Shown here in pieces: positions 9,618 to 43,069 of a stretch of DNA of 64,000 bases; the first letter of the stretch is position 1, and every line of letters begins with the position of its first letter. The DNA lies in contig OZ245842.1 of assembly GCA_965228895.1 (NCBI GenBank), positions 3,936,001 through 4,000,000 on the forward strand, read 5' to 3'. This DNA is from Alphaproteobacteria bacterium. Lineage in GTDB: Bacteria > Pseudomonadota > Alphaproteobacteria > SP197. Both the position numbers and the translations under genes were made by a program. Under the pieces are notes generated by a model. That model did no database searches and had not been told where the DNA came from. It was given only the letters and a program-made list of their open reading frames with translations.

Positions 9618-9632
9618 TGTAGATTTTCTACA
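9618..9632. promoter_or_regulatory. Probable LysR operator, palindrome TGTAGA-TTT-TCTACA
   Basis: Perfect 6-bp inverted repeat containing T-N11-A, 5 bp from the LysR start, in the divergent spacer. Confidence 0.6.
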
Positions 9633-9715
9633 TGCATGAAAGCGGGCTTCTGCTTAGACGTCCCTGCTGGACTGTGTCAAACACCCCATCAGACCGACAG
9701 ACCAGGGAGAGAGCC

Positions 9716-10420: not shown

Positions 10421-10430
10421 CGGGACGGCC

Positions 10431-12620: not shown

Positions 12621-12640
12621 CGTCACATCCTCCGGCAGTT

Positions 12641-12688
12641 TTATTGAATATGTATTCAATAATAATCTGGCCGTCTCGGCCTTGTCAA
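12641..12688 (-). promoter_or_regulatory. Sigma70-type promoter (TTGACA-N18-TATTAT) overlapped by the palindrome TTATTGAATA-TG-TATTCAATAA (12641-12662), BetI/TetR-like operator
   Basis: Perfect 10-bp arms in an AT-rich patch; minus-strand TTGACA at 12688-12683 and TATTAT at 12664-12659. Confidence 0.7.
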
Positions 12689-12723
12689 TCCGCGGTGGCA
12701 TCACAGCATAGAGGGAGATCACC

Positions 12724-19885: not shown

Positions 19886-20682
19886 GCTGCCGCCGCTTTG
19901 TCGCGCGCGATCGCAACCAGCTCGGCCACACGCTTGGCGTCGATGGCATCACCCGACTTCAGGCCTGTGCCGACAATGGCGCCGTCTGCGACAGCCAGCA
20001 GCGCTTCGGCGTTCCCGGCATCAAGGCCGCTCCCAAGGATGACCGGAATGGCACCCGCACCCTCCTTGGCGGCCGCTACCGACGCGACATCCGGCGCGTG
20101 GCCGGTGGCATCGCCGGTCACGACGATCGCATCGGCCCCGGCCTCGGCGGCGAGCGATGCCGATTCGGCAAGGCTGCGCTCGACCAGCATGGTGGCGTAC
20201 TTGACCTGGATATCGGCCAGGATCAGCACGTCGTCGGCACCGATCGCACGGCGATAGGCCAGCAATCCCGCCGCATCGATCCGCATGGCACCGCCGTGCT
20301 CGGGCCGCGACATCGGGTCGACGAAATAGTCTGTGCGGATGAACGAACCGCCGGCCGCGTGCGTCACGGCGAGCGACGCCTCGGGATCGTTCAGCAGGAT
20401 TTCCGCCCCGACCCGGACATCGGCTGACGCCGTCACGACTTCCCGAGTCACCCGCGTCATCGCCGCCGTCGTTTCGGCGGATGAGAGCACGCGGTGCGGC
20501 CGGTCGTATTCGTTCTCGACCAGCGCGCCCTGCGCGCCGCCCGCCTCGAGCGCAGCTAGATCGCCAAGCGCCTTATCGATCACCGCATCAAGGCCAGGCG
20601 AGTCCGGATAACCCGGCAGGGGCGGCAGATGGATGACGCCAATAATCGGCTTGCCCGCGCCAAACAGATCGTGGAACCGCAA
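19882..20682 (-). CDS. BtpA/SgcQ family protein
   Basis: IGVIHLPPLPGYP, VENEYDRP, ILADIQVKYA, ADAIVVTGDATG, ADGAIVGT; TTG start. Confidence 0.9.
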   Translation of the reverse strand: MRFHDLFGAGKPIIGVIHLPPLPGYPDSPGLDAVIDKALGDLAALEAGGAQGALVENEYDRPHRVLSSAETTAAMTRVTREVVTASADVRVGAEILLNDPEASLAVTHAAGGSFIRTDYFVDPMSRPEHGGAMRIDAAGLLAYRRAIGADDVLILADIQVKYATMLVERSLAESASLAAEAGADAIVVTGDATGHAPDVASVAAAKEGAGAIPVILGSGLDAGNAEALLAVADGAIVGTGLKSGDAIDAKRVAELVAIARDKAAAA

Positions 20683-23138: not shown

Positions 23139-24815
23139 CTAATCCAGCATCGGCAGCTTCAGGTGGTGCTCGGCGGCGCACTCAACGGCGATGTCGTAGC
23201 CGGCGTCGGCGTGGCGCATGACGCCGCTGGCGGGATCGTTCCAGAGCACGCGCGCGATACGCCGGTCGGCGTCTTCGCTGCCATCGCAACAGATGACCAT
23301 GCCGGCGTGCTGGGAGAAGCCGATACCGACGCCGCCGCCGTGGTGGATCGAGACCCAGGTCGCGCCTGACGCGGTGTTCAACAGCGCGTTCAGCAACGGC
23401 CAGTCGGCGATGGCGTCGGAGCCGTCCTTCATGGACTCGGTCTCACGGTTGGGGCTGGCGACCGAACCTGAATCAAGGTGATCGCGGCCGATGACGATCG
23501 GCGCCTTCACCTCGCCCGTGCGCACCATCTCGTTGAAGGCAAGCCCCAGCTTGTCGCGCTGCCCCAGCCCGACCCAGCAGATGCGCGACGGCAGGCCCTG
23601 GAAGTGGATGCGCTCCCTCGCCATGTCGAGCCAGTTGTGCAGGTGTTTGTCGTCGGGGATCAGCTCCTTCACCTTGGCGTCGGTGGCGTAGATATCTTCG
23701 GGATCGCCGGAAAGCGCGGCCCAACGGAACGGGCCAACACCGCGGCAGAACAAGGGACGGATATAGGCCGGCACAAAACCCGGGAAGTCGAAGGCGTGCT
23801 CGACGCCCTCCTCCTGCGCCATTTGGCGGATATTGTTGCCGTAGTCGAGCGTCGGGACGCCGGCGTTCCAGAAGTCGAGCATGGCCTGGACCTGAACCGC
23901 CATCGATTCCTTGGCCGCTTTGACCGTGCCTTCGGGATCGCTCTCGCGCCGTTCGTCCCACTCGGCCAGAGACCAGCCCGCCGGCAGATAACCGTTCAGC
24001 GGATCGTGGGCGCTCGTCTGGTCGGTCACCACATCGGGATGGGCGCCGCGTTTGACCAGTTCGGGGAACACCTCCGCCGCGTTGCCGAGCAAGCCGATCG
24101 ACACGGCCTCCTTCTTCGCCGTCGCGTCTTCGATCATCGCCAGCGCATCGTCCAGGTCGTCGGTGCTTTTATCCAGATAGCCGGTCCTGAGCCGCATCTC
24201 GATGCGCGACGGTTGGCATTCGACGGCCAGCATCGACGCACCGGCCATGGTCGCAGCCAAGGGCTGCGCGCCGCCCATGCCGCCGAGGCCGCCGGTTAGG
24301 ATCCAACGGCCCGAGAGGTCGCCCGCGTAGTGCCGGCGGCCGACCTCGACGAAGGTCTCGTACGTGCCCTGAACGATGCCCTGGCTGCCGATATAGATCC
24401 ACGAGCCCGCCGTCATCTGGCCGTACATCATGAGGCCGGCGCGGTCGAGTTCGTGGAAGTGCTCCCAGTCCGACCAGTGGGCGACCATGTTGGAGTTGGC
24501 GATCAGAACCCGCGGCGCGTCCTTGTGGGTACGAAAGACACCGACCGGCTTGCCCGATTGCACCAACAGCGTCTCGTCGTCGTCGAGTTCGCGCAGGGTG
24601 GCGACGATGCGGTCGAAACACTCCCAGTTCCGCGCCGCGCGCCCGATGCCGCCATAGACGACCAGTTCTTCCGGCTTTTCGGCGACCTCGGCATCCAGGT
24701 TGTTCATCAGCATGCGCAGCGGCGCCTCGGTCAGCCAGCTCTTCGCGCTGATATCCGAACCACGGGCAGCACTGATCGTTCTCGTGTTGTCGCGGCGGTT
24801 CTCGGCTGCGGTCAT
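23139..24815 (-). CDS. hutU: Urocanate hydratase
   Basis: [63 protein letters not shown]. Confidence 0.97.
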
Positions 24816-24897
24816 GGCCCGGCTCCCTGGAACACTGCTTCGGTGCTATAAACCCTCTATAGAGCAGCCCTACGACCGGTCAACACCACGCGCAACC

Positions 24898-25848
24898 ATG
24901 GCAAGCTTCGACCCTCTGTCACGCAAGGCGTTCGCCGATGCCAGCAAGCCGCACACGGACGGCTTCTTCTGGCGTTATGACGGGCCGACCTGGCTCGTCG
25001 CCATCGGCACCTATGCGGCCTGGCTGCTGCTGATCATCTTTCACGATCTCATTCCCTGGCCGGTCATGATGATCGTCGGCGGCTATGTGCTGGCACTGCA
25101 TTTCTCGCTGCAGCATGAAGCGATTCACGGCTGGCGCTCGATCCCCGGCTGGCTGAGAACCGCGGTCGTGTGGCCACCGATCGGCGGCTGGCTGCCGTTT
25201 GAAATCTACCGGCGCGCCCACAGCCTGCATCACCGCAACACGGTTCTAACGTTCCCTGGCGAGGACACGGAATCCTACTATCACAAACGCGCGGACTGGC
25301 AGCGCTACAGCGCCCTATGGCGCGGCATCCTGCTGTTCCACCAGACGTTCTTGGGCCGGCTCCTGATCGGGCCGTTACTGCGCTGGCGCAAGCTGGTGAT
25401 AATCGAAGGCGGCATGTTGTTACGCGGTGATTTCAGCAACGTGCCGATTTGGCTCGGCTTCTTTGCCGGTCTCGCCGTCATCCTGTGGTTCGTCAGCGGC
25501 GTCTGTGGCATGCCGATCTGGGAATACTACGTGCTGCTGGTCTATCCCGGTCTCAGCATCGGCTTGATCCGCGCTTTCATCGAACACCGCTATGGACGGC
25601 GCGCCGGCGAGCGCATTGCCATCGTCGAATCGAATTGGGTGTTCGGCCTGCTGTTCCTTTGGAACAACATGCACCTCATCCATCATCTCTATCCGGCGAT
25701 GCCGTGGTACCGGATTCCCGCCTTCTACCGTAAGCATCGTTCGGAACTACTGGCGCACAACAGCCAGTATCGCTTCAGAGGTTACGGCGAGATCGCGCGT
25801 CGCTGGTTCCTGAAACCGGTCTTCGTCCCGGTTCACCCGATCAAGTAG
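24898..25848 (+). CDS. Membrane fatty-acid desaturase family protein
   Basis: His boxes QHEAIH, HSLHH and HLIHH with hydrophobic segments. Start taken at ATG 24898. Confidence 0.85.
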   Translation: MASFDPLSRKAFADASKPHTDGFFWRYDGPTWLVAIGTYAAWLLLIIFHDLIPWPVMMIVGGYVLALHFSLQHEAIHGWRSIPGWLRTAVVWPPIGGWLPFEIYRRAHSLHHRNTVLTFPGEDTESYYHKRADWQRYSALWRGILLFHQTFLGRLLIGPLLRWRKLVIIEGGMLLRGDFSNVPIWLGFFAGLAVILWFVSGVCGMPIWEYYVLLVYPGLSIGLIRAFIEHRYGRRAGERIAIVESNWVFGLLFLWNNMHLIHHLYPAMPWYRIPAFYRKHRSELLAHNSQYRFRGYGEIARRWFLKPVFVPVHPIK

Positions 25849-25860: not shown

Positions 25861-26931
25861 TTACTCCGCGGCGACGGGCTCGCGCGCGTTGCTGCCTTCG
25901 AATGCCGGCATCACCTCGTCGACGAAGAGACGCAGCGACTTCTGCTGTTCTTCCATCGGCAGACCGTAGCTGGCGCAGTAGAGGAAGTTATCGACGCCGA
26001 GTGCCTCATAGGCCCTGAGCTTGGCGATTACCTCGTCGGGCGTTCCGAACATCAGGTTCTCGCACAGCATCTTTGGATCGTACTCCGCCCGGTTGTCCAG
26101 GCTGGCCAGATCGATGACTTCCGGGAAGCCGTTGGAGACCGCGCCCAGTTCCTTGAACAGGTTCTCGAACTGCGCGCTTTGGTGACGCACCGCGTTGATA
26201 TAGTGCTCCCAGTCGCCCGCGTTCTCGTAAACGGCCGCATAGCGCATGGTTAGGAACGTCGGTCGTTTGACATCCGGCGCCTTGGCGAGAGCGTCCTCGA
26301 AGCGGCCCATATAGGTCTCGACTTCCGAGAACGGGCGGGACAACGCCCAGGTCATGATGTTGCAGCCGTTGGCGAGCGCCCAGTCGAAGGTACCGGGATC
26401 GCGCGCGGCCACCCATATCGGCGGGTGCGGATCCTGCAGCGGCTTGGGGCACGCCGTGGTCGGCGGGAACGACCAGAACTCGCCCTCGTGTTCGTAGTCG
26501 CCGGCCCAAAGCTGTTTCAGCACCGGCAGCATTTCCTGCATATAGGCGACGCCGACCTGCTGCTTCAGGCCGCCGGCCATGCGGTTGAACTCGCGCTGAT
26601 AAGCGCCGCGGCCGATGCCGAACTCCAGTCTCCCGCCGCTCAACAGATCGAACATGGCAGCCTCGCCGGCGAGCTTCACCGGATGCCAATAGGGCGCCTG
26701 CACGATGGCGGTGCCCAGGTGGATATTGTCGGTGTGCGCGGCCCACCATGTCAGCAGCGGAAACGGCGCCGGCGCGATGGTCATCTCGATCGCGTGGTGC
26801 TCGGCGGCCCAGGCGATTTCGAAACCGCCCTGGTCGGCCATCTGGACCATCTCAAGGGTGTGGCGCGCGACATCCTTCATGTCGATCGCGGGATCCATGC
26901 GTTCCATGTTGATGGCGAGACTGAATTTCAT
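25861..26931 (-). CDS. Luciferase-like (LLM) flavin-dependent monooxygenase, TgnB-like
   Basis: AWAAEHH, HLGTAI..APYWHPVKLAGEAA, SGGRLEFGIGRGAY, PKPLQDPHPPIWVAARD. Confidence 0.9.
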   Translation of the reverse strand: MKFSLAINMERMDPAIDMKDVARHTLEMVQMADQGGFEIAWAAEHHAIEMTIAPAPFPLLTWWAAHTDNIHLGTAIVQAPYWHPVKLAGEAAMFDLLSGGRLEFGIGRGAYQREFNRMAGGLKQQVGVAYMQEMLPVLKQLWAGDYEHEGEFWSFPPTTACPKPLQDPHPPIWVAARDPGTFDWALANGCNIMTWALSRPFSEVETYMGRFEDALAKAPDVKRPTFLTMRYAAVYENAGDWEHYINAVRHQSAQFENLFKELGAVSNGFPEVIDLASLDNRAEYDPKMLCENLMFGTPDEVIAKLRAYEALGVDNFLYCASYGLPMEEQQKSLRLFVDEVMPAFEGSNAREPVAAE

Positions 26932-26994
26932 GGCGGCTTTCCTCGATCCGGCAACGGTGGCAATCGAGGCGAAGTAAACGGGTGAGCGGTCAGA

Positions 26995-27040
26995 GCGTAA
27001 ACGGCAAAAAGGATGGCCCTTGCGTAACGAAAACTTCACA
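26995..27040 (-). promoter_or_regulatory. Bipartite regulatory motif, copy 1 (TGTGAA-N7-TTACG-N19-CGTTTACGC), upstream of the LLM gene
   Basis: Same boxes and spacing as the copies at 29550-29595 and 32491-32535. Confidence 0.7.
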
Positions 27041-27127
27041 CGGCGTTCGGCACTTGCGGTCTCTTAGGGCCCGCTAACGGCGGGATCGACCAGTCGATGT
27101 TCAGTACCTGCACAGCGTAAGAGGCGC

Positions 27128-28312
27128 CTAAGACGGTGGCAGGTCCAGGATCGCCTCGGCCATGGCGATGATGTCGGGGTAGTAACTGGCGTCGTAGCCT
27201 TCCGCGTCTTCCAGCACGCTGAAGAAGACAATGACGGTCCGGCTTGCCGGGTCGACCAGCAGATACTGGCCGCCGTAGCCGCCATGGCTGACCCAGCGGC
27301 CGTTCGTCATGAGCTGGTTGTGGTAGGTCAGGTCATCGCGATCTTCGTAGCGCGGCTGGCCCTGCTCCTTGAGCGTGCGTTCCAGAAATGCCGGACTGCC
27401 GACCATCTCACCGCTGACGCCGCGGCCACCGCGCGCGATCAGCCCGCCGTAGCGGGCGAGATCGCGCGCGGTCAGCGAGACGCCCCCCGCTATCACGGGC
27501 ACACCGTCGCAATCGGTCGAAATGTGGAAGGTGCCTTCGATGCCGGCGGCCTCGACGATATCCAGCACGTGATCACACAGGCTCTTGCCGCTGATCCGTT
27601 CGGCGATCCATCCGGCAATGTCGGTGTTCGGTGACTTGTATTGCGTCATGCCGGTCGTGTTGGTGATGTCGTCGCTCACCAGTTGGGCGGCAAACGCGCG
27701 GCAGCTGAACGGCTGCTCGCCGTCGGGCTGCAAGCGCCAGCCCATGGCGATCTCCTCGCGCCCGTAACCGACCGTGGCACCCGGCGTCGCGTTGAAGTGC
27801 CAGGGGTCGGCATAGTCCTCGTTGAAGTTGTTGATGACGTTCATATCGAGGACCTGCTGCACCGTCGCCTCGGCATAGCCACTGCCGACCTCGGGCAGGT
27901 AGTGCGAGACCTTGGCGTCGAGATCAATCAGACCGTCCTCAACCAGACGGCCGCACACCAGATGCATGGTCGTCTTGCTGATCGACTGGATGCTGTGCGG
28001 CCGGTCAGGCCCGAAGTCGGCGGCGTATTTTTCGAAGAACACGGTTTGATCGCGCACGACAACCATGCCGGAGAACATCGTCGATCCGGTCAGCTGGCGC
28101 ACCAGTGCCAAATCACCGATACGCCGGTCGATGACTTTGGTCAGCGGCAAAACGTTGGTGGCGCGAAGGCTCAGGCCGTAACGGGACAGCCGGTGGAGGT
28201 TGTGAAACCCCCACCGGCGTTTGTCCGGCCGGTTCCAGTTCGCCTGATTGCGCGCCTCGACGTCGAGGTCGGGATTGCGAACCGTCGTCAGCCCATGGTC
28301 GTCCGACGACAC
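27128..28312 (-). CDS. Serine hydrolase, beta-lactamase family (NylB-like amidase)
   Basis: SxxK (QSISKT), YKS, LTARDLARYG, HGGYGGQYL; GTG start 9 bp after the SBP stop. Confidence 0.88.
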   Translation of the reverse strand: MSSDDHGLTTVRNPDLDVEARNQANWNRPDKRRWGFHNLHRLSRYGLSLRATNVLPLTKVIDRRIGDLALVRQLTGSTMFSGMVVVRDQTVFFEKYAADFGPDRPHSIQSISKTTMHLVCGRLVEDGLIDLDAKVSHYLPEVGSGYAEATVQQVLDMNVINNFNEDYADPWHFNATPGATVGYGREEIAMGWRLQPDGEQPFSCRAFAAQLVSDDITNTTGMTQYKSPNTDIAGWIAERISGKSLCDHVLDIVEAAGIEGTFHISTDCDGVPVIAGGVSLTARDLARYGGLIARGGRGVSGEMVGSPAFLERTLKEQGQPRYEDRDDLTYHNQLMTNGRWVSHGGYGGQYLLVDPASRTVIVFFSVLEDAEGYDASYYPDIIAMAEAILDLPPS

Positions 28313-28321
28313 GGGCGGAGA

Positions 28322-29422
28322 CTAAAGACCCGCGCGGACGTCCTGGTACAGCGTTTCGTACTTGGCTTCGTACTCCGGATCCATCGCCGGGAAGAAGATC
28401 GTGTTCGCGATCAACGTCTCGGGATCGGAGAAGCCCAACTGGTCGAGGCGCTCCTGGGGCAGCATCTCGTATGCCGCCAGGTTGGCGCTGCCGTAGCCAT
28501 AGTTATCGATCAGCCAGGCACCGGATTCCGGCGAGATCCAGGCATCGATATAGGTGTAGACGGCATCCAGATCGGTCGCGTCCTTATGGATGATGAAACC
28601 GGAACCCCACGCGAAGACACCTTCCTTCGGCACCATGTAGCCGACCGGCACGCCTTCGTCCTGCAGGGTGACGAACGACTGGTTCCACGCATAGGCCGCA
28701 ACGACTTCGCCGTTGGCGATCGCCTGCTCCATCTCGGTCACGTCCGACCAGTAGAAGCGGGTGAGGTCGCGCTGCTTCGACATCAAACCCTGAACCTCGG
28801 CGAGCTGGTCGTCCGACAGGGTCCAGACGTTATCGTAGCCCAGCATCAACGCGGCGACGGCAACCGTCGCCACCGACGTGTCGTACCAAGCCAACCGATT
28901 GGCATAAGCATCGTCATAGAGGATCGCCCAGGAGTTATCGTTGATGTACTTCTGGTCAATCATGTCGGTGCGGTAGAGCAGCGACGAGTTGCCGAACTCC
29001 GCCGGCACGAAATAGCGGGTGTCGTCAAAGATAGAACCCGAGATGTCCTTGATGCCGGGCGCAATCGTGCCCCAGTTGCTGAGCCGGCTGGTGTCGATCG
29101 GCTGAATCAGTCCGGCGTCGACATAGCGCTGGATCATGTAGTTGCCGGGATGGATGAAGTCCGGTGCAAAGCCAGCGCGAATCTTCTCGAACGATTCGAT
29201 GTCGGACGCGATGTAGCTGAATTCCGGCGGCCCGCCGTACTTGTCGATGTAACCGCCCATCATCTCGGGCATGTCATAACCGGCCCATGTGTGGCCGGAG
29301 ATTTCGCCGGCCGCGCGGGCGCCGCGCGTCATCAGCGGCACGCTGACGATACTGACACCAAGCGCCGCGAGGTTCTTGGCCAACTCACGCCGGTCCATGA
29401 CCGGACCCTTTATCGTTTTCAT
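28322..29422 (-). CDS. ABC transporter substrate-binding protein (PotD/PotF-like) with twin-arginine-like leader
   Basis: MDRRELAK..LAALG...ARA leader, TWAGY, IQPIDTSRLSNW, YMVPKEG; no permease or ATPase adjacent. Confidence 0.88.
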   Translation of the reverse strand: MKTIKGPVMDRRELAKNLAALGVSIVSVPLMTRGARAAGEISGHTWAGYDMPEMMGGYIDKYGGPPEFSYIASDIESFEKIRAGFAPDFIHPGNYMIQRYVDAGLIQPIDTSRLSNWGTIAPGIKDISGSIFDDTRYFVPAEFGNSSLLYRTDMIDQKYINDNSWAILYDDAYANRLAWYDTSVATVAVAALMLGYDNVWTLSDDQLAEVQGLMSKQRDLTRFYWSDVTEMEQAIANGEVVAAYAWNQSFVTLQDEGVPVGYMVPKEGVFAWGSGFIIHKDATDLDAVYTYIDAWISPESGAWLIDNYGYGSANLAAYEMLPQERLDQLGFSDPETLIANTIFFPAMDPEYEAKYETLYQDVRAGL

Positions 29423-29549
29423 GTGATGCCTCCCCAGAAATGAGCAATCGGGCCGCCCGTCGGTGTCAGACCGACGCCCGCGACCCCGTGCGAACGCAAA
29501 CCCGACCGCCCCGTCGAGCAAGCTTCATGCTCGGGCCGGAGCGCCTTGG

Positions 29550-29595
29550 GCGTAAACGTAGAAAATAGTTTGCTACACGTAACGTCAGCTTCACG
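29550..29595 (-). promoter_or_regulatory. Bipartite regulatory motif, copy 2 (CGTGAA-N7-TTACG-N19-CGTTTACGC), upstream of the SBP gene
   Basis: Near-palindrome CGTGA-N8-TTACG plus a downstream GTTTAC box, same spacing as copies 1 and 3. Confidence 0.7.
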
Positions 29596-29611
29596 CAAAA
29601 AAGCTTCGGGT

Positions 29612-31096
29612 TCAGCGCATCACGAACGGGTTGCCCATCGGCGCCGACGACGTGTTGATCCAGACCGTCTTCGGCCTTGTGTAGTCGTAGATCGCCTGGG
29701 CACCCGACTCGCGGCCATAACCGGAATCCTTGAAGCCGCCGAACTCGGCGATCGGCGACACCACCCGATAGGTGTTGATCCAGACAATGCCGGCGCGAAT
29801 CTGCTTTTGCACCCTGAGCGCCCTGGCGATGTCCTTGGTGAAGATGCCGGACGCCAGGCCGTACTTGGTATCGTTGGCCTTGGCGATCACCTCGTCCTCG
29901 TCCTTGAAACGCAGCACCGACAGCACCGGGCCGAACATCTCGGTGTCGACGATCTCCATCTTCTGGTCCGGACACTCGACGATGGTCGGCTCGTAGAACC
30001 AGCCGGCGTTCAAATGCGCCGGCTGTTTGCCGCCATGGTGGACGGTGCCGCCCTGCTCCTTCGCTCTGGCAACCTGTGTCTCGCACGCGTTGAGTTGGCC
30101 CAGGGTGCACAAAGGACCCATCTGGGTTTCCTCGGCCAGCGGATCACCGATCAGAATCTTTTCGGCGCGGCCCGTCAGGTCGGCCAGAAACGTGTCGTGG
30201 ATCTTCTCGTGCAGATAGATCCTGGAACCGGCAACGCAGCTTTGGCCGCTGGCGCCGAAGATGCTTGCCATCGAACCATTCACCGCGCTTTCAAGGTCCG
30301 CGTCGTCGAACACGACGACCGGCGACTTGCCGCCCAGTTCGAGCGACACCTCGGCGAAGTTTTCGGCCGAGTTGCGCACGATGTGCCGCGCCGTCTCGGG
30401 CCCGCCGGTGAAGCTGATGCGCGCGACCAGCGGGTGCGTCGTCAGCACACGACCGCACGGCTCGCCGAAGCCGGTGACGACGTTGACGACACCTTCGGGA
30501 AAGCCTGCTTCCTCGATCAGCTTGGCGAACTCCAGCATCGCGGCCGACGCGTGTTCCGACGCCTTCAAGACCACCGTGTTGCCGGCAGCCAGCGCCGGCC
30601 CGATCTTGACCGCGACCAGGAAGAGCTGGCTGTTCCACGGTACGACGGCTGCGATCACGCCGAGCGGTTCGCGTGTCGTGAAGACACAGAGGTCCGGCTT
30701 GTCGATCGGCAGCGTTTCGCCATGCACCTTGTCGGCAAGGCCGGCATAGAAGTGGAAGAACTCGGCGATGTACTTCGCCTGCCAGCGCGTTTCCTTCAGC
30801 ATCTTGCCGGTATCGATCGTCTCGGTGCGGCCCAATTCCTCCGACTTGTCGGCCAGAAGATCGCCCAGGCGGCGCAGGTACTTGCCGCGTTCGGTCGGTG
30901 TCATCGACGCCCACAGTCCTTCGCTGAACGCGCGGTGCGCGGCTTTGATGGCGCGGTCGACATCGTTTTCGGTCGCCGCCGGGATCTTCGCCCATACCGC
31001 GCCCGTCGACGGGTTGACACTGTCGAACATGCCGCCGTCTTCGGCGTCACACCACGCGCCGTCGATGAACATCTGATAGGATTTTGCTTCGCTCAT
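29612..31096 (-). CDS. Aldehyde dehydrogenase (TgnC-like)
   Basis: VPWNSQLFL, SFTGG, LELGGKSP, GQSCVAGSR, EMFGPVL, FGGFKDSGYGRE. Confidence 0.93.
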   Translation of the reverse strand: MSEAKSYQMFIDGAWCDAEDGGMFDSVNPSTGAVWAKIPAATENDVDRAIKAAHRAFSEGLWASMTPTERGKYLRRLGDLLADKSEELGRTETIDTGKMLKETRWQAKYIAEFFHFYAGLADKVHGETLPIDKPDLCVFTTREPLGVIAAVVPWNSQLFLVAVKIGPALAAGNTVVLKASEHASAAMLEFAKLIEEAGFPEGVVNVVTGFGEPCGRVLTTHPLVARISFTGGPETARHIVRNSAENFAEVSLELGGKSPVVVFDDADLESAVNGSMASIFGASGQSCVAGSRIYLHEKIHDTFLADLTGRAEKILIGDPLAEETQMGPLCTLGQLNACETQVARAKEQGGTVHHGGKQPAHLNAGWFYEPTIVECPDQKMEIVDTEMFGPVLSVLRFKDEDEVIAKANDTKYGLASGIFTKDIARALRVQKQIRAGIVWINTYRVVSPIAEFGGFKDSGYGRESGAQAIYDYTRPKTVWINTSSAPMGNPFVMR

Positions 31097-31200
31097 GACG
31101 CGACCTCCCCAACTCGATTCGTAAATGAACCTAGTGCACGTCTCCCGGTCGTGGCTAGATGTATGGACGGAACAGCACCATCAACGAAGGAACGATCGTC

Positions 31201-31590
31201 ATGTCGAAGGCAAAGGAAATCATCGGCGGGCCGCTGGTTATCGGCGGTCGAACGCTATCGCTGTCCAGGGCCGTGCGCGCCGGCGACATGGTCTATCTGA
31301 CCGGCCAGATTCCCATGAAGGACGGTGCGCCGATGACCGACGGCAGCATCGAAGACCAGACTCGCGTGACCCTCGACCTCATCACCGAAACCCTGAGCGA
31401 GGCCGGCTGCACGCGCGATGATGTCGTGAAGGCGATGGTCTGGCTGCGCGATGTCGAGGACTTCCCCGGCTTCAACAGCGTCTATGCCGAGTACTTCCCA
31501 AAAGACCCACCGGCCCGATCGGCGGTGCTGACCCAGTTGCTGGTCGACGTGAGGATCGAGATCGAGGTTGTCGTCTATAGCCCGCAGTAG
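31201..31590 (+). CDS. RidA/YjgF family protein
   Basis: LSRAVRAGDMVYLTGQIP, FNSVYAEYF, PPARSAV (conserved Arg), IEIE. Confidence 0.92.
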   Translation: MSKAKEIIGGPLVIGGRTLSLSRAVRAGDMVYLTGQIPMKDGAPMTDGSIEDQTRVTLDLITETLSEAGCTRDDVVKAMVWLRDVEDFPGFNSVYAEYFPKDPPARSAVLTQLLVDVRIEIEVVVYSPQ

Positions 31591-31593
31591 GTG

Positions 31594-32493
31594 TCAACGC
31601 TGTGCCATCACCCAGTCGTGAAACCGTTGCGCGCCGGAACCCAGGCGCACGCCGCGTGGCGTGACCATGTAGACACCGTAGCCTTTCGACTGAACGGCCT
31701 TCATCGGGCGCACGAGGTCACCGCGCGCCAGGTGATGATCGACGATGTTGCTGAAACCCAGCGCCACGCCGTGGCCTTCGATGGCGGCCTGGATGATGTT
31801 GGCGTAGTTGTCGTAACCCAACGTGCGGAAGTTCGCCGGCAGTTTGACGCCGGCGCCTTCCAGCCACCACGTCCAGTCTTCGTCGGAATGCGGCGCGCCG
31901 TCCAGATTCAGGAGCGGCTGCGACAAGAGGTCGGCCGGCTTGGCGATGGGGCCCGCCGACTCCAAGAAATCCGGCGCGCAAACCGGGAACGTGTCGGTAT
32001 CGAAGAGATGCCGCGGCTTGAGGCCGGGCCAGGAACCGGAGCCGTAGCGCAGGCCGACATCGATGCCTTCCTCGATCATGTCGAGCGGCGCGTCCGACAC
32101 CCTGATGCGCAACTCCAGATCCTTGTTGGCCGAGCGAAACGCCGGCAGGCGCGGCGTCAGCCAAAATGTGGCGATGGCGACCGTGGCGGTCACGGTAACC
32201 CGGGACGACCCGGCGACGTGACCCAGTTCGCCAGCGGTCTTGGCGATGTCGCCCAGGCTCTTTGAGACCGTCGCATGAAGCGCGTGACCGGCTTCGGTCA
32301 GCTCGATGGCGCGGTGGCGGCGGAAGAAGAGATCGGTGCCCAGATGCTCTTCCAGGATGCGGATATGCCGGCTCACCGCCTCGCGGCTGACGGTCAGTTC
32401 CTGGGCCGCGCGGGTAATGCTCAAATGCCGGGCAGCCGCCTCAAAGGCGACCAGACTGTTGACCGGCGGAAGACGCATACGCAGGCTTTGCAT
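31594..32493 (-). CDS. LysR family regulator (GcvA-like)
   Basis: LPPVNSLVAFEAAARHLSITRAAQELTVSREAVSRHIR; FWLTPRL; divergent from the flavin reductase. Confidence 0.93.
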   Translation of the reverse strand: MQSLRMRLPPVNSLVAFEAAARHLSITRAAQELTVSREAVSRHIRILEEHLGTDLFFRRHRAIELTEAGHALHATVSKSLGDIAKTAGELGHVAGSSRVTVTATVAIATFWLTPRLPAFRSANKDLELRIRVSDAPLDMIEEGIDVGLRYGSGSWPGLKPRHLFDTDTFPVCAPDFLESAGPIAKPADLLSQPLLNLDGAPHSDEDWTWWLEGAGVKLPANFRTLGYDNYANIIQAAIEGHGVALGFSNIVDHHLARGDLVRPMKAVQSKGYGVYMVTPRGVRLGSGAQRFHDWVMAQR

Positions 32494-32535
32494 GAAAAAA
32501 AGCTTACGCGAAGATCAGCCTTTTTCAAGTTTACC
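32491..32535 (+). promoter_or_regulatory. Bipartite regulatory motif, copy 3 (CATGAA-N7-TTACG-N19-AGTTTACC), overlapping the LysR start codon and upstream of the flavin reductase
   Basis: Same spacing as copies 1 and 2; position typical of an LTTR autoregulatory site. Confidence 0.7.
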
Positions 32536-32598
32536 GAACGCCTCGGGAAACCCTCTACTGCGTGGCGTCGCACCGTGCCGCGAACCGGAGGTCTGATC

Positions 32599-33114
32599 AT
32601 GAGCTTTTTCGAATGCGCCCCCAGGCTTGGCTTTCACGACGCCTTTCGCCAGGCGATGCGCGGGGTCGCCGGCACGGCGCACCTGATCACCGCGGTCGAC
32701 AAGGAAGGCGCCTGGTACGGCATGGCGGCAACAGCCGTGTCGTCCGTGTCGATGGATCCACCATCCATTCTGGTTTGCATCAACCGCGACGCCGCGACGT
32801 GCGCGCCGATCGACGAGCGCGGCCAGTTCTGCGTCAACGTGCTGGCGGAGGATCACCGCGACCACTGCGCGCGCTTCGGCCGGCCGGACGCCCGCCACAC
32901 CCGGTTCCATCACGGCGAGTGGCTGGACCACGACGGCCTGCCCTATCTGGCCGACGCCCAGGCCGCCATCTTCTGCGACGTCGCGCAGCGCGTCAGCCAC
33001 GGCACGCATAGGATCTTCATCGGCAATGTCAGCGACATCATGCTGCCGCGCGAAACGGTCAATCCGCTGGTCTACCTCGACCGCAACTTCGTTTCGCTGG
33101 CCGCGACAGCCTGA
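32599..33114 (+). CDS. Flavin reductase (HpaC/RutF family)
   Basis: FRQAMR, GMAATAVSSVSMDPPSILVCIN, GTHRIFIG, PLVY; RBS GGAGG. Confidence 0.92.
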   Translation: MSFFECAPRLGFHDAFRQAMRGVAGTAHLITAVDKEGAWYGMAATAVSSVSMDPPSILVCINRDAATCAPIDERGQFCVNVLAEDHRDHCARFGRPDARHTRFHHGEWLDHDGLPYLADAQAAIFCDVAQRVSHGTHRIFIGNVSDIMLPRETVNPLVYLDRNFVSLAATA

Positions 33115-33245: not shown

Positions 33246-34058
33246 ATGGAAGCCACCGACACCGGCATGCGTCTTGAAAGGCGCGGCCATGTTCTGGAGA
33301 TCACGCTCGACCGGGGCAAGGTAAACGCCATCGACAACGCCATGAGCCGCGAGCTCGGCAAGGCGTTTGTCACCTTGCGCGACGATCCCGACCTCAGGGT
33401 CGGCCTGATCACCGGCGCTGGCGAAAAGATCTTCTCGGCAGGCTGGGATTTGAAGGCGCTCGACAGCGGCGACCAGGCGCTCGACAACTGGTGGGAGAGC
33501 GAGGACGCGGCGTCCGGTGGTTTCGCCGGCATCACCGAAATGTGGGACCTGAACAAGCCGGTCATCGCCGCGCTGAACGGCATGGCGATCGGCGGCGGCT
33601 TCGAGATCGCGCTGGCCTGCGACCTCATCATTGCCGCCGACCACGTCCAGTTCCAACTGCCCGAAATGCCGCTCGGCATCGTGCCCGACGCCGGCGCCCT
33701 GCAGCGTCTGCCGCGCCGCCTGCCCTATACGATCGCGCTCGAAATGCTGCTGATGGGCCGGCGCATGCCGGTCGAGGAGGCCCAGCGCTATGGCCTCGTC
33801 AATCTGATCGTGCCCGCCGCCGATCTGATGACGACGGCGCGCGCCTGGGCCGATCAACTGGCCGAGTCGGCCCCGCTTGCCGTGCAGACGGTGAAAGAGG
33901 TGCTGCGCGCCGTCGAGGACGACACCATCCAAACTGCATTCCACACCATGCGCACCGGCGATCTGCCGACCTATCGCCACATGCTGCGCTCCGACGATGC
34001 CAAGGAGGGCGTGCGCGCCTTCGTCGAGAAACGTAAACCCAACTTCAAGGGGGCCTAG
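33246..34058 (+). CDS. Crotonase; carnitinyl-CoA dehydratase (CaiD-like)
   Basis: NAIDN..SRELGKAF...RDDPDLRV.LITGAGEKIFSAGWDLKA, GGFAGITE, GGGFEIALACD; adjacent to carnitine dehydrogenase. Confidence 0.85.
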   Translation: MEATDTGMRLERRGHVLEITLDRGKVNAIDNAMSRELGKAFVTLRDDPDLRVGLITGAGEKIFSAGWDLKALDSGDQALDNWWESEDAASGGFAGITEMWDLNKPVIAALNGMAIGGGFEIALACDLIIAADHVQFQLPEMPLGIVPDAGALQRLPRRLPYTIALEMLLMGRRMPVEEAQRYGLVNLIVPAADLMTTARAWADQLAESAPLAVQTVKEVLRAVEDDTIQTAFHTMRTGDLPTYRHMLRSDDAKEGVRAFVEKRKPNFKGA

Positions 34059-34068
34059 GGAACCGGGA

Positions 34069-35025
34069 ATGGCGAGAAAAGAACCTGGCGCGGTAAAGCG
34101 CATCACCAGCATCGGCGCCGGCCCGATCGGCGGCGGCTGGTCGACCTACTTCCTGGCAAAGGGTTACGACGTCACCGCCTATATCCACGACGCCGCTGAA
34201 GAAGAACCGCTGCGCGGCCTGATCGATAACGCGTGGGCGGCCATGGAAGAGCTGGGTCTGGCCGAGGGCGCCTCGCGTGACCGGCTGACCTGCACGACCG
34301 ATCTTGCGGCGGCCGTCGCCGATGCCGAGTTCGTGCAGGAAAGCGTGCCGGAAATCCTGGATCTCAAACAGTCGATCTACGCCAAGCTCGGCGACATGGT
34401 GCCCGAAGACGTCGTGATTGCGTCCAGCACGTCGGGCCTGATGATGACGGACATCCAGGCAACGTGTTCGACACCGGAACGCACGGTCACCGGCCATCCC
34501 TTCAACCCGCCTTATCTAATGCCGCTGGTCGAGGTCGTCGGCGGCGAGAGAACGGCGCCGGAGACTGTCGAATGGGCCGGCGCGTTCTATGAGCACGCCG
34601 GCAAGGCGCCGTTGATGATGACCGCCGAGGTGCCGGGCTTTGTCGCCACGCGCCTGCAGGAAGCGATCTGGCGGGAGGCGCTGCACATGGTCAATGAGGG
34701 CGAAGCCACACCCGAGCAGATCGACACCGCCATCGTCAACGGGCCGGGGCCGCGCTGGGCGATCATGGGACCGTGCATGGTCTATCACGTCGGCGGCGGC
34801 GAAGGCGGCATGGAGTACTGTCTGGAACAGTTCGGCCCGGCGCTGAAACTGCCGTGGACCCGCCTGGTGGCGCCGGAACTGACACCGGAACTGCGCGCCA
34901 AGATGGTCGACGGCTGCGACCGCATGGCCGGCGACAAGGACTTCCGCCAGCTGACCCGCGAGATGAACGACGGTTTGGTCGCCATCGCCAAGGCGCTTAA
35001 CGCCATCAGGGCGGCATCGTCCTGA
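34069..35025 (+). CDS. lcdH: L-carnitine 3-dehydrogenase (3-hydroxyacyl-CoA dehydrogenase family), no fused thioesterase
   Basis: GAGPIGGGW, VQESVPE, ASSTSGL, GHPFNPPYLMPLVEVVGG, RLQEAIWREALHMV, GGGEGGM; context with CaiD-like and BKACE genes. Confidence 0.82.
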   Translation: MARKEPGAVKRITSIGAGPIGGGWSTYFLAKGYDVTAYIHDAAEEEPLRGLIDNAWAAMEELGLAEGASRDRLTCTTDLAAAVADAEFVQESVPEILDLKQSIYAKLGDMVPEDVVIASSTSGLMMTDIQATCSTPERTVTGHPFNPPYLMPLVEVVGGERTAPETVEWAGAFYEHAGKAPLMMTAEVPGFVATRLQEAIWREALHMVNEGEATPEQIDTAIVNGPGPRWAIMGPCMVYHVGGGEGGMEYCLEQFGPALKLPWTRLVAPELTPELRAKMVDGCDRMAGDKDFRQLTREMNDGLVAIAKALNAIRAASS

Positions 35026-35123
35026 ACCCAACGACCAGTTCACGACGAAATTCGCTTGGTGCGTCCGAAGGGATCGTGAAGGATGCGCCAAGACGAATCG
35101 CGACCGAACAAGGGGCAGAAACC

Positions 35124-35651
35124 ATGGCCGTTCCAGCAGAGCTTAAAGCCGTCTTCGAGGCCGACACGGCCGACGATGCCAAGATGGGCGACCTCATGAA
35201 GGTGCTGTGCGACGTGCTGGACTGCGATCGCTGCCTTCTGTTCCTGCGCGATCCCGATAGTCGCAAGTCGCGCTGCACCCATGGTTATGAGACCGACCCT
35301 TCCTATGCGCTTGACCGGCCTGATGACGGCTGGGCGACGGAACCGGAAAACCTGGTGAGCGACGACCCGATGTTCGCCGAGGCCATGCACAATCCCGAAG
35401 CGCTCTATATCGACAACATCGAGACCGCGTCGCCCGACCTTGTGAACGCTGCCTATGAGCGCGAACACTTCAAACACCAGGCGCTCGTCCACGCGCCGCT
35501 GCAGCAAGGCGGCAAGCTCTACGGCATTCTGGAGCCCTGCACGATCGCCGCACCACGCCAATGGACCGATGCCGACCGCGAGACGATCGCCTGGACCATG
35601 GAACAGCTAACCCCGATCGCCGTGGCCTATGTCGCCGCGAACTGTCACTAA
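35124..35651 (+). CDS. Stand-alone GAF-domain protein
   Basis: [35 protein letters not shown] are typical GAF features. Confidence 0.78.
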
Positions 35652-35716
35652 TCCTTTTGCGGCCCCGACCTTTTGACAACCCGGGGGCCGCCCCAACCCA
35701 TGAGGACCGAACGACC

Positions 35717-36604
35717 ATGAATACCGACGTCATCATCACATGCGCCGTGACCGGCGCCGGCGACACCACCGGCAAGAGCGACAAGGTGCCGGTGACACCG
35801 GAGCAGATCGCCGACGCCGCCATCGAGGCCGCCAAGGCGGGCGCGGCCGTCGCCCACATGCATGTGCGTGACCCTGAGACCGGCAAGGGCGCACGCGATG
35901 TCGAGCTGTTCCGCGAGGTCGTCGACCGGGTCAAGGCGAGCGACACCGATGTCGTGATCAACCTGACCGCCGGTATGGGCGGCGACTTCGTGCCCGACGA
36001 GAACGATCCGACCGTCGCCGCGCCGGGCAGCGATCTGATCGGGCCGAAGGAACGGCTGGCTCATGTCGAGGCGCTCCGCCCGGAGATCTGCAGTCTGGAC
36101 TGCGGCACCATGAACTTCGGAAACGGCAACGAGACCTATATCAACACCGCGGCCTTCATTCGCCAGATGGCGGCCGACATCAAGGAACTCGGCGTCAAGC
36201 CGGAGCTTGAGGTCTTCGACCTCGGCCAGGTGCGCCTGGCGAGCCAGATGGTGACCGAGGGTTTGATTGCCGAACCACCGCTGTTCCAGGTCTGCCTCGG
36301 CATTCCCTGGGGTGCGGGCGCCGATACCCGCTCCATGACCGCCATGGTCGACGGCCTGCCCGAAGGCGCCAACTGGGCGGGCTTCGGCATCAGCCGCATG
36401 CAAATGCCGATGGTGGCGCAGGCCATGCTGCTGGGCGGCAACGTCCGCGTCGGGCTGGAGGACAACATTTATCTCGATCGCGGCGTCCTGGCATCGAACG
36501 GCGATCTTGTGGCACGCGCGGTCGAGATCATCCAGCGCCTTGGCGGCAAGGTCCTGAATCCCGAAGAGGCCCGTCAGAAGCTGGGATTGCCGACCAAGCA
36601 TTAG
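35717..36604 (+). CDS. Beta-keto acid cleavage enzyme (BKACE/Kce; CdhC-like dehydrocarnitine cleavage)
   Basis: [46 protein letters not shown]. Confidence 0.92.
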
Positions 36605-41354: not shown

Positions 41355-41406
41355 CGTTGGCCTCGTTACCTGTGGCTGATACCCGCCATGGTAGACCAGC
41401 GGGCCC

Positions 41407-42918: not shown

Positions 42919-43069
42919 CGCGCCACCTCCTCTACCGGCGGGTGAATCCGCCCCGCCACCTGCTTCTAACGGGGCGGCCGCACCGTGCCAATTGTTGGAA
43001 ATTCCTGCCGGGTGATCATGGTCACTGGCAATTCGTACGGATGTGCCAACATTTAAGGTGTTCATAAGA

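Follow-up and report, generated by a model that had tools for sequence, protein, structure and literature searches.

A LysR-flanked gene island joining a monooxygenase labeled as TgnB family to carnitine-pathway-like genes in an alphaproteobacterium

The window analyzed here is a 64-kb stretch of an alphaproteobacterial genome. The genes that bear on the analysis are the following.

16810 to 17613, plus strand: α/β-hydrolase of an LLM-linked (TgnD-type) family (PF00561), 8.2 kb from the LLM gene
25861 to 26931, minus strand: oxygenase component of an LLM-class flavin-dependent monooxygenase (LLM), 356 aa, TgnB family by source labels
27128 to 28312, minus strand: NylB-like class C beta-lactamase-family serine hydrolase, amidase or esterase (PF00144)
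28322 to 29422, minus strand: orphan PotD/PotF-like periplasmic solute-binding protein (SBP; PF13416) with a twin-arginine-like leader (DRRELAK)
29612 to 31096, minus strand: NAD(P)-dependent aldehyde dehydrogenase (ALDH; PF00171), first gene of an ALDH-SBP-hydrolase-LLM string
31201 to 31590, plus strand: RidA-family enamine/imine deaminase (PF01042), divergent from the ALDH gene
31594 to 32493, minus strand: GcvA-like LysR-type regulator (PF03466 and PF00126), divergent from a reductase-ECH-HCDH-GAF-BKACE string
32599 to 33114, plus strand: short NAD(P)H:flavin reductase (171 aa; PF01613), presumed LLM partner
33246 to 34058, plus strand: enoyl-CoA hydratase (ECH), crotonobetainyl-CoA-hydratase-like (PF00378)
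34069 to 35025, plus strand: 3-hydroxyacyl dehydrogenase (HCDH), L-carnitine-dehydrogenase-like (PF02737 and PF00725)
35076 to 35651, plus strand: small GAF-domain protein (PF01590; E value, 5e−10), between HCDH and BKACE
35717 to 36604, plus strand: BKACE-family beta-keto-acid cleavage enzyme (PF05853; E value, 8e−102)

Pfam searches recovered all seven families that the initial annotation had placed from the LLM to the flavin reductase, and the motifs it quoted (MKFSLAINMER, AEHHAIEMTIAP, PWNSQLFL, and IDKPD) were present in the translations. The LLM matched PF00296 (E value, 2e−51; ORF 25861-27039, minus strand), with a likely true start at 26931 and GAGGAAA 7 to 8 nt upstream; no NCBIfam model scored at or above its cut-off. 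Relatives sharing 65 to 74% identity carry the database name [quoted passage not shown] and the Atlas cluster name also places the family under the TgnB oxygenase component. By these labels, which are automatic and are shared by this LLM clade and the A. fabrum-type clade (52% identical to it), the protein can be taken as a putative member of the family called TgnB oxygenase component in public sources. It shared 52% identity with the LLM of the A. fabrum pAt cluster and 61 to 62% with those of Aminobacter and Parasedimentitalea.

The ALDH (PF00171 E value, 4.4e−169) carried both the ELGGKSP and GQSCVAG motifs and shared 72% and 46% identity with the ALDHs of the Aminobacter and A. fabrum clusters, respectively. 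Its top NCBIfam model was betaine-aldehyde dehydrogenase (521.7 bits; cut-off, 668.6), which is also the Atlas name of its nearest clusters, rather than TgnC. RidA (PF01042 E value, 1.9e−27; ORF 31159-31590, plus strand; likely true start, 31201) contained a PARS motif, scored 92.4 bits against TIGR00004 (cut-off, 106.25) and 57.6 against RutC (169.1), and was 64% identical to RidA of the Aminobacter cluster and 77% to that of related locus L007. For the reductase (PF01613 E value, 4.3e−39 to 1.7e−38), the likely true start within ORF 32275-33114 (plus strand) was the ATG at 32599; RutF was the top NCBIfam model (112.6 bits; cut-off, 254.75), and the protein shared 34% identity with the reductase domain of its A. 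fabrum cluster counterpart, which is 323 aa long. The window reductase is presumed to be the flavin-supplying partner of the LLM. The intergenic region between the reductase and LysR genes measures 105 nt. The regulator scored 259.5 bits against GcvA (cut-off, 288) and 231.8 against the choline-sulfate regulator (324.8), in keeping with its earlier GcvA-like label. Control of either string by LysR could be suggested from position only, and a promoter and terminator scan gave no excess of sites.

The serine hydrolase (PF00144 E value, 6e−24) aligned end to end with NylB (PDB 1wyb; residues 23 to 369; E value, 4e−34), and the Ser-x-x-Lys motif and tyrosines matching NylB Tyr170 and Tyr215 were conserved, which bears out its NylB-type label. 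No signal peptide was seen on inspection by eye. At least 120 homologs were found, with 51 to 99% identity among the matches listed, where the named ones came from alphaproteobacterial and other metagenome-assembled genomes or from a marine survey. The SBP (PF13416 E value, 1.8e−24; ORF 28322-29521, minus strand; likely true start, 29422) matched PDB entries for PotF and PotD at E values of ∼1e−22; the PotD-like label holds, although the PotD/PotF-like scores were far under the equivalog cut-offs (PotD, 84.5 bits against 582). Since three permease queries found no PotB/C-type permease in the 64-kb window, its description as a lone SBP also stands.

The initial annotation ended the unit at 33114, which proved too narrow: the reductase is the head gene of a co-directional string of ECH, HCDH, GAF, and BKACE genes (33246 to 36604), families that are conserved partners of the LLM clade. 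The top NCBIfam models were crotonobetainyl-CoA hydratase for ECH (319 bits; cut-off, 500) and Kce for BKACE (255.5 bits; cut-off, 382; start picked from two translations compared by eye), and HCDH scored 330.5 bits against L-carnitine dehydrogenase (414). Its two best plasmid matches (60 to 61% identity) were the two LLM-linked clusters. Carnitine-pathway or Kce models were thus best for all three enzymes, both here and in three relatives, yet always under cut-off, which suggests an analogous rather than an identical substrate. Missing from the window were several families that round out the CoA module in other loci, namely the cluster-type acyl-CoA dehydrogenase (a 35% match only), the ADP-forming CoA ligase, and the CoA-transferase. 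The GAF protein had no homolog in 80 related loci at the thresholds used.

These 80 genome loci were surveyed for gene linkage, with denominators that differ by family (48 to 80); they are not independent, about ten (L068 to L083) being nearly identical single-cell genomes. The families, their order, the conserved catalytic motifs, and the linkages kept in other genomes are direct observations. An α/β-hydrolase lay within 8 kb of the LLM gene in 43 of 48 loci, RidA in 17 of 48, and BKACE in 19 of 57. An ALDH gene (≥60% identity) was directly upstream of the LLM gene in 33 of 60 loci and an ECH gene (63 to 73% identity) directly downstream on the same strand in 21 of 68, while HCDH and DUF1185 were linked to the LLM clade in 19 of 63 and 23 of 48, respectively. 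LysR homologs (54 to 59% identity) flanked the LLM gene in 3 of 80 loci (L007, L013, and L022).

The ALDH-SBP-hydrolase-LLM string was collinear in L004, with 91 to 97% amino acid identity. Locus L007, with an LLM sharing just 68% identity with that of the window, had LysR, SBP, LLM, hydrolase, ECH, HCDH, RidA, and ALDH genes within 12 kb (55 to 77% identity), and SBP-LLM-hydrolase-ECH-HCDH-ACAD-ACS in one co-directional string. Because the block recurs in these two loci, the cluster is more than a chance assembly. The SBP adjoined the hydrolase and LLM in both (95% identity in L004 and 67% in L007), and shared only 22% identity with the SBP of the Aminobacter cluster. The trio of amidase, orphan SBP, and LLM is rare, and the NylB-like gene stood beside the LLM gene in these 2 of the 80 loci only. 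The P. marina cluster ends with a 41%-identical homolog of the NylB-like hydrolase.

In the trigonelline (Tgn) system, TgnA is the reductase, TgnC the ALDH, and TgnD the α/β-hydrolase. Citing papers give TgnB as an LLM and TgnF as DUF1185, with succinate semialdehyde oxidized by TgnE. The Tgn family set in related loci comprises LLM, ALDH, α/β-hydrolase, DUF1185, and flavin reductase, whereas the seven-gene interval lacks the α/β-hydrolase and DUF1185 genes. The window does encode an α/β-hydrolase of the LLM-linked family, at 16810 to 17613. It was 49% identical to the hydrolase following the LLM gene in A. fabrum pAt, its best matches among the loci were LLM-adjacent hydrolases, and its L004 ortholog (90%) adjoins an OCD gene and is itself 5.3 kb from the LLM gene; its PcaD score was 156.7 bits (cut-off, 255.85). 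The proposal of a trigonelline-pathway-like module had partial and indirect support from the TgnB labels of the LLM family and the Tgn set in related loci; its replacement of TgnD was not supported, and neither were its boundaries.

We tentatively favor the reading, plausible without being assured, that the seven genes form the center of a more extensive LysR-flanked catabolic island, which reaches from ∼25.9 to 36.6 kb and is complemented by a related hydrolase gene at 16.8 kb. Its substrate would probably be an N-methylated or quaternary-ammonium carboxylate, meaning a betaine or an N-heterocyclic betaine. An N-heterocycle or N-methyl betaine, as first suggested, fits the context in relatives, which includes GbdR-like regulators, OpuAC or PotD-like SBPs, an OpuAC transporter, MttB, and sarcosine oxidase. 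In our reading, the island may be a rare form, associated with a LysR gene, of a widespread type of TgnB-family, CoA-linked cluster for the catabolism of betaines or N-heterocycles. That type genetically couples a TgnB-family two-component flavin monooxygenase (LLM plus flavin reductase) and its ALDH to a carnitine-pathway-like module (ECH, HCDH, and BKACE).

The reactions, their order, the regulator targets, and the substrate class are inferred. The Tat-exported orphan SBP would bind the compound outside the cytoplasm, and the cytoplasmic NylB-like hydrolase could act on either the imported compound or an intermediate, removing a group bound through an amide or ester. The reductase would give reduced flavin to the LLM, which may oxidatively open or cleave the nitrogen-containing substrate to an aldehyde for oxidation by the ALDH. 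RidA and the distal α/β-hydrolase could hydrolyze enamine or imine and amide products with release of amine, and ECH, HCDH, and BKACE might perform carnitine-like hydration, oxidation, and acetyl-CoA-dependent cleavage to acetoacetate. LysR would control the reductase string, from which its gene diverges, and probably that of the ALDH as well. A single linear pathway is hard to draw because BKACE enzymes act on free beta-keto acids.

It is possible, if rather doubtful, that two independent pathways share the island, their proximity reflecting a common role in betaine scavenging: one of trigonelline type (LLM, reductase, ALDH, RidA, and distal α/β-hydrolase) and one converting carnitine or gamma-butyrobetaine to glycine betaine (ECH, HCDH, and BKACE). 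Tgn-type sets without the CoA genes ECH, HCDH, and BKACE occur in many relatives (A. fabrum [pAt; L003], L046, L050, L052, L061, and L066), so the modules can exist apart and their co-location could represent a "betaine island." Plasmids of Bacillus cereus and Citricoccus carry BKACE-CDH-thioesterase clusters with no LLM, Aminobacter also has the acetoacetate-CoA ligase expected downstream of BKACE, and carnitine enzymes are the top models for ECH and HCDH. Against separate pathways, ECH, HCDH, and BKACE all fall under the carnitine/Kce equivalog cut-offs, and many loci place ALDH, LLM, ECH, and HCDH genes side by side. In seven loci (L002 and 6 of 80), CoA-transferase and flavin reductase are fused in one reading frame; in L010 and L081 the LLM stands alone within an ECH-HCDH-BKACE-ACAD-ACS module, with no ≥60%-identical ALDH within 8 kb (L081 has a 36%-identical one directly upstream); and the genes are interleaved in the L007 string. 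These arrangements, together with the reductase string of the window, argue for the favored single system of LLM and CoA module.

A trigonelline-like ring opening in which the amidase takes off an N-formyl group and RidA hydrolyzes the enamine, the two jointly replacing TgnD as initially proposed, is unlikely. The retained catalytic residues of the amidase would suit it, as would the lack of α/β-hydrolase and DUF1185 genes from an interval whose relatives mostly keep the hydrolase close by. A formamide hydrolysis step with subsequent enamine deamination also makes chemical sense and parallels the RutB/RutC logic of the Rut pathway. Against it stand the distal hydrolase of the window and its L004 ortholog next to the block. 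Both L007 and the Parasedimentitalea (P. marina) plasmid pW43B combine the amidase with RidA and a hydrolase of the LLM-linked family, and in two of its three contexts the amidase is operonic with CoA-module genes and not with the RidA/hydrolase arm. RidA also accompanies hydrolase-bearing relatives and is thus not special to this variant.

Highly improbable is a Baeyer-Villiger role, in which the LLM would oxygenate an HCDH-made beta-keto intermediate (a dehydrocarnitine-like ketone) to an ester that a serine hydrolase (NylB-like or α/β-hydrolase) splits, as an O2-dependent bypass of BKACE: two-component LLM ketolactonases are known (PMC6352141), no linkage is better conserved than that of LLM and α/β-hydrolase, enol-lactonase models match the hydrolases best, and L010 pairs the LLM with HCDH without an ALDH, but the bypass would be redundant with BKACE in the same clusters, and the source labels and partners (ALDH, DUF1185, and RidA) indicate a Tgn type.

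Searches with Pfam located all seven gene families of the block at 25861-33114 at the places given by the initial annotation, and the peptide motifs it had quoted were all found in the translations; the seven-gene observation as reported is confirmed. The G+C content of the window is ∼63%. The seven Pfam-assigned genes are as follows.

25861-27039, minus strand, LLM monooxygenase
27128-28312, minus strand, beta-lactamase-family hydrolase
28322-29521, minus strand, solute-binding protein (SBP)
29612-31096, minus strand, ALDH
31159-31590, plus strand, RidA
31594-32493, minus strand, LysR
32275-33114, plus strand, flavin reductase

The likely true starts come out shorter than the longest open reading frames (ORFs), with that of the LLM gene at 26931, preceded by a Shine-Dalgarno-like GAGGAAA, and those of the SBP, RidA and reductase genes at 29422, 31201 and 32599, respectively. 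The minus-strand order is ALDH-SBP-hydrolase-LLM. RidA stands alone and is divergent from ALDH, while LysR points toward RidA and away from the flavin reductase gene, which lies 5.7 kb from the LLM gene on the opposite strand. Scans for promoters (1 promoter-like site; expectation, 2.0) and terminators (6 terminator-like sites; expectation, 7.6) did not inform the operon limits.

The GcvA-like label of the LysR protein holds, as does the NylB-like label of the hydrolase, which aligned with NylB over its whole length (E value, 4e-34) and kept the Ser-x-x-Lys motif (SISK versus SVSK in the alignment with PDB 1wyb) and both tyrosines (equivalents of Tyr170 and Tyr215). This match fixes the fold (class C beta-lactamase) and the catalytic type only, not the substrate. 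The SBP is PotD/PotF-like, yet scored far under the PotD and PotF model cut-offs. Three permease queries identified no permease homologs of the PotD/PotF importer in the 64 kb, so that the SBP is a lone one as annotated, and the sole ATPase match for this importer in the window was an unrelated gene at 18414-19031. The ALDH, in one string with the LLM, shared 72% identity with the ALDH of an Aminobacter cluster and 46% with that of an Agrobacterium fabrum cluster; an Atlas search returned the name betaine-aldehyde dehydrogenase for it and no TgnC name. The reductase is short, at 171 aa, whereas the form encoded by the clusters of A. fabrum and Aminobacter has 323 to 326 aa; identity to the reductase domain of the 323-aa A. 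fabrum protein is 34%.

The end point of the annotated interval was placed too early, as the string led by the reductase runs on past 33114 through four further genes.

33246-34058, plus strand, enoyl-CoA hydratase (ECH), codirectional with the reductase gene; best NCBIfam model, crotonobetainyl-CoA hydratase (319 bits; cut-off, 500)
34069-35025, plus strand, 3-hydroxyacyl dehydrogenase (HCDH); best NCBIfam model, L-carnitine dehydrogenase (330.5 bits; cut-off, 414)
35076-35651, plus strand, GAF protein (191 aa, GAF only), between HCDH and BKACE
[quoted passage not shown]

On these scores, ECH, HCDH and BKACE of the window are predicted to be carnitine-like proteins, not equivalogs, and the same sub-cut-off scoring of carnitine- and Kce-type models was seen in three related loci (L001, L007 and L070). 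No counterpart of the GAF protein was found in any of 80 related loci. Upstream of the LLM gene are genes of the fatty-acid-desaturase and OCD families, with a true hutU and an acyl-CoA dehydrogenase (ACAD) gene between them; beyond these come a block of four genes and then an α/β-hydrolase gene at 16810-17613. The desaturase-family gene (24895-25848) encodes a membrane protein, is convergent with the LLM gene and occupies the same place in the related metagenome-assembled genome (MAG) contig L004 (90% identity). A fatty-acid-hydroxylase-family gene was found near the LLM gene of another related locus, L018.

Annotated plasmid relatives fall into two cluster types. In A. fabrum pAtC58 (LLM 52% identical), the order is reductase-ALDH-LLM-α/β-hydrolase-CMD-NIPSNAP-DUF1185, beside a ProXVW transporter, and this set appears to match the Tgn set so far as confirmable, which is for DUF1185 as TgnF. 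Aminobacter pSR3 and Parasedimentitalea marina pW43B carry LLMs 61 to 62% identical to that of the window in two-armed clusters. One arm, with RidA, α/β-hydrolase, reductase and DUF1185, runs divergently from ALDH-LLM-ECH-HCDH; next come genes for a GlxA/GbdR-like regulator, BKACE, an ABC importer, ACAD and an ADP-forming CoA ligase. When the region was compared with plasmids by megablast, only short matches of 72 to 78% resulted, so that it does not correspond to any known plasmid module.

A scan of one genome per species gave 80 loci (L004 to L083), which were mapped by tblastn with window and plasmid proteins. The counts listed below take in only loci with enough flank and come from rows that are not independent, ∼10 of them being nearly identical single-cell genomes.

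α/β-hydrolase within 8 kb of the LLM, 43/48 loci
ALDH at least 60% identical, directly upstream of the LLM, 33/60 loci
DUF1185 with the LLM, 23/48 loci
RidA with the LLM, 17/48 loci
Flavin reductase with the LLM, 11/48 loci
ECH directly downstream of the LLM on the same strand, 21/68 loci
HCDH with the LLM, 19/63 loci
BKACE within 8 kb of the LLM, 19/57 loci
NylB-like hydrolase within 10 kb of the LLM, 2/80 loci (L004 and L007)
LysR at least 50% identical, with the LLM, 3/80 loci (L007, L013 and L022)

The NylB-like hydrolase was rare beside the LLM. The few contexts of this hydrolase bear on the proposal that it and RidA stand in for TgnD. No TgnD-type α/β-hydrolase was identified by Pfam within 25861-33114. 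The gene at 16810-17613, 8.2 kb away from the LLM of the block, belongs to the LLM-linked family, and its best matches were LLM-adjacent hydrolases (A. fabrum, 49%; L007, 40%; L013, 38%). L004, with an LLM 96% identical, is collinear with the window over ALDH-SBP-hydrolase-LLM-desaturase-hutU-ACAD-OCD, and its α/β-hydrolase gene directly follows OCD, 5.3 kb from the LLM gene. At this point the window has four minus-strand genes (17614-20682: UPF0014 permease, ABC ATPase, PfkB kinase and BtpA) that are absent there in L004; the difference represents an insertion or deletion of four genes between close relatives, probably an insertion in the window. In L007 (LLM 68% identical), LysR-SBP-LLM-hydrolase-ECH-HCDH-ACAD-CoA ligase form one string, and α/β-hydrolase and RidA are divergent from ALDH. 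The BKACE-ABC-ACAD-ligase string of P. marina ends with a NylB-like hydrolase homolog (41% identity). Where it recurred with this cluster type, the NylB-like hydrolase was always accompanied by the α/β-hydrolase family, and in two of three contexts it sat among genes of the CoA module; the replacement of TgnD by this hydrolase and RidA is contradicted by these arrangements.

MAGs of alphaproteobacteria and other metagenome sources commonly carry the NylB-like subfamily; it has at least 120 homologs, those listed all being 51 to 99% identical. Two further candidates were set aside. A "serine hydrolase" on a Citricoccus plasmid (order BKACE-HCDH-thioesterase-ABC-"serine hydrolase") falls outside the subfamily of the window hydrolase (21/62 residues in the alignment) and is an analogy at most. 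Mesorhizobium AR02 carries a 49% hydrolase homolog beside a peptide-type ABC transporter between insertion sequence elements, with no LLM.

Homologs of the window LLM number in the thousands. Several with 65 to 74% identity bear the JGI or NCBI name [quoted passage not shown], which is also that of an Atlas cluster scoring 0.97. Acinetobacter baylyi TgnB (Q6F9F6), an LLM according to a figure legend (PMC11354265), was not among the best 120 matches of either the window LLM or the A. fabrum LLM. In LLM trees, the window, L004, L005/L006, L007 and L013 made up a basal group of poor resolution, outside a large well-supported clade; the A. fabrum-type branch lay further out still, beyond the 82 rows that include the window. 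L007 grouped with L005/L006 and not with the window in quick trees; a single clade of the hydrolase-bearing rows (window, L004 and L007), a group picked after the tree was seen, was not rejected by an AU test on a smaller form of the tree (p 0.33).

The locus L005 (10001-19917) has two LLM-ALDH pairs in opposite orientation, with LLMs 74% and 64% identical to that of the window, and thus a duplicated module; genes for a GntR regulator, DUF1185, α/β-hydrolase, ABC ATPase and Rieske oxygenase separate the two pairs. A second LLM context, with an α/β-hydrolase and a TPP-dependent enzyme, was found at L037:5871-13572 and L018:7335-11038. In L037, genes for a PNPOx/FNR/2Fe-2S reductase, a DUF1348 protein and a pyridine-nucleotide-disulphide oxidoreductase come before this set, and an MttB-family methyltransferase lies near the set of L018. 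Because L037 is from the same MAG as L004, the organism of the window probably has a second LLM paralog, and the recurrence of this context in L018 and L037 indicates that the LLM/hydrolase pair is the movable core.

In A. baylyi ADP1, the tgn pathway comprises TgnA (reductase), TgnB (LLM), TgnC (ALDH type), TgnD (α/β-hydrolase type), TgnE and TgnF. The window resembles it in a putative two-component pair of LLM oxygenase and flavin reductase, an ALDH beside the LLM, an LLM-linked-family α/β-hydrolase in the same 64 kb, and LLM relatives labeled TgnB by public sources; related loci have a tgn-like set of LLM, ALDH, hydrolase, DUF1185 and reductase. Unlike tgn, the window had no DUF1185 (TgnF-type) gene by tblastn with two DUF1185 proteins across its 64 kb, its hydrolase is 8.2 kb off and not in the operon, its reductase is the short form, and it has in addition the NylB-like hydrolase, the orphan SBP, RidA and ECH-HCDH-BKACE. 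One published account equates DUF1185 with TgnF and has TgnE oxidizing succinate semialdehyde (PMC7913881).

The logic and superfamilies of the window also resemble those of the Rut pyrimidine pathway, where the LLM RutA opens an N-heterocycle with flavin from the reductase RutF, the amidohydrolase RutB acts on the ring-opened product, RutC (RidA family) and RutD (α/β-hydrolase) handle the enamine/imine, and a semialdehyde is processed later. The Rut equivalog models scored below cut-off (RutF, 112.6 bits against 254.75; RutC, 57.6 against 169.1; RutD, 71.2 against 238.5), and the RutA model was absent among the best 25 of 28 LLM model matches. The amidase of the window has a beta-lactamase fold, whereas the Rut amidohydrolase is an isochorismatase, and the window adds ALDH and the CoA/BKACE module.

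That module resembles carnitine and gamma-butyrobetaine catabolism (CaiD-type hydratase, carnitine dehydrogenase, a BKACE that cleaves dehydrocarnitine, and GbdR/CdhR-type regulators) in the models matched by ECH, HCDH and BKACE. The relatives have, besides these, ACAD, either a family III CoA-transferase or an ADP-forming CoA ligase, and a regulator of GbdR-like type. It differs in scoring below all three equivalog cut-offs, in its tie to an LLM oxygenase (and in seven loci to a CoA-transferase/flavin-reductase fusion), and in a LysR-type regulator versus the GlxA type of the carnitine system; compared with the carnitine-type clusters of Bacillus and Citricoccus, the window has no thioesterase gene. 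The window hydrolase is no more than distantly related to NylB (6-aminohexanoate-dimer hydrolase), and its genetic context is one of natural-product catabolism. The homarine operon homABCDER serves the breakdown of an N-methylpyridinium betaine and, like the putative pathway of the window, includes a hydrolase and an ALDH-like enzyme (PMC13236597). Its authors liken HomA/HomB to TgnA/TgnB, and their text describes HomA as an FAD-binding protein, HomC as a predicted peptidase and HomD as "ALDH-like", with no mention of a luciferase-like protein (PMC13236597). By that description the families differ, and the homarine operon was rejected as the identity of the window cluster.

Taken together, the locus is tentatively read, at a little below an even chance, as a LysR-flanked variant of a TgnB-family, CoA-linked island that would degrade an N-methylated or quaternary-ammonium carboxylate, with all reactions inferred from sequence. 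The interpretation first offered is partly supported, in that public sources label the LLM family as trigonelline monooxygenase; the NylB/RidA substitution for TgnD was not supported. That two known pathways, a Tgn-type set and a carnitine-like CoA set, simply share an island is rather unlikely. Tgn-type sets do exist without CoA genes, BKACE-CDH-thioesterase clusters exist without an LLM, and cluster-type ACAD, ligase and transferase are missing from the window. However, a family III CoA-transferase and a flavin reductase occupy a single ORF in P. marina (by Pfam; L002:4028-6151 on pW43B) and in six genome loci (L043, L051, L056, L059, L063 and L080). These ORFs, measured from stop codon to stop codon, span 574 to 755 codons (707 aa in P. 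marina as annotated), adjoin LLM clusters and represent gene fusions that tie CoA chemistry to a two-component monooxygenase. In L010 and L081, moreover, the LLM lies inside ECH-HCDH-BKACE-ACAD-ligase without a cognate (at least 60% identical) ALDH within 8 kb, L081 having only a 36% ALDH directly upstream. LysR-LLM-hydrolase of L013 adjoins a ligase and ACAD, the reductase of the window leads the ECH string, and the two best plasmid matches of the window HCDH are exactly the two LLM-linked clusters. These arrangements argue for one system.

The fuller form of the single-system reading is somewhat unlikely as a whole. On this view, a pathway that is widespread in Alpha- and Gammaproteobacteria (several carriers are labeled marine) and apparently undescribed has in the window a variant with LysR, NylB-like hydrolase and orphan SBP. 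It is a pathway in which a TgnB-family ring-opening or C-N-cleaving monooxygenase would be combined with CoA activation and carnitine-like ECH/HCDH/BKACE, the CoA-transferase/flavin-reductase fusions physically joining both parts, and the substrate would be an N-methylated betaine or N-heterocycle other than trigonelline or carnitine. Novelty lies more in the wider cluster family than in the seven genes themselves. The combination of TgnB-like oxygenase and carnitine-like CoA cluster occurs in 21/68 related loci, many of them uncultured single-cell genomes, and a limited literature set yielded no paper describing an LLM-plus-carnitine-like cluster. Published work describes betaines and N-methylated heterocycles, among them trigonelline, homarine, carnitine and gamma-butyrobetaine, as abundant in the sea; publication of the homarine pathway dates only from 2026 (PMC13236597). 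If it is one pathway, it would be a new route, probably with a new substrate, for the marine pool of betaines and N-methyl heterocycles and would give a function to the large NylB-like hydrolase subfamily and to the CoA-transferase/flavin-reductase fusions; if two known pathways lie side by side, the locus would be a commonplace betaine island, unusual only in its accessory amidase.

Elsewhere in the window, an aromatic-amino-acid-lyase family gene (40380-43065) overlaps a 2OG-Fe(II) oxygenase gene on the same strand. The lyase scored under the HutH cut-offs (404.2 bits against 524 and 385.6 against 539), and the only true hut gene near it is hutU (23139-24815; 973 bits), 17 kb off, next to the LLM block. 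The lyase may act on a compound other than histidine, as an ammonia- or amine-lyase of, e.g., a betaine type. Two Rieske ring-hydroxylating oxygenase alpha subunits are encoded at 2668-3810 and 11484-12725. Close to the second are genes for a LysR regulator, an SDR and a GFO/IDH/MocA oxidoreductase (8707-11447). A Rieske oxygenase is also present inside the LLM cluster of L005, and those of the window could be further betaine or aromatic oxygenases.
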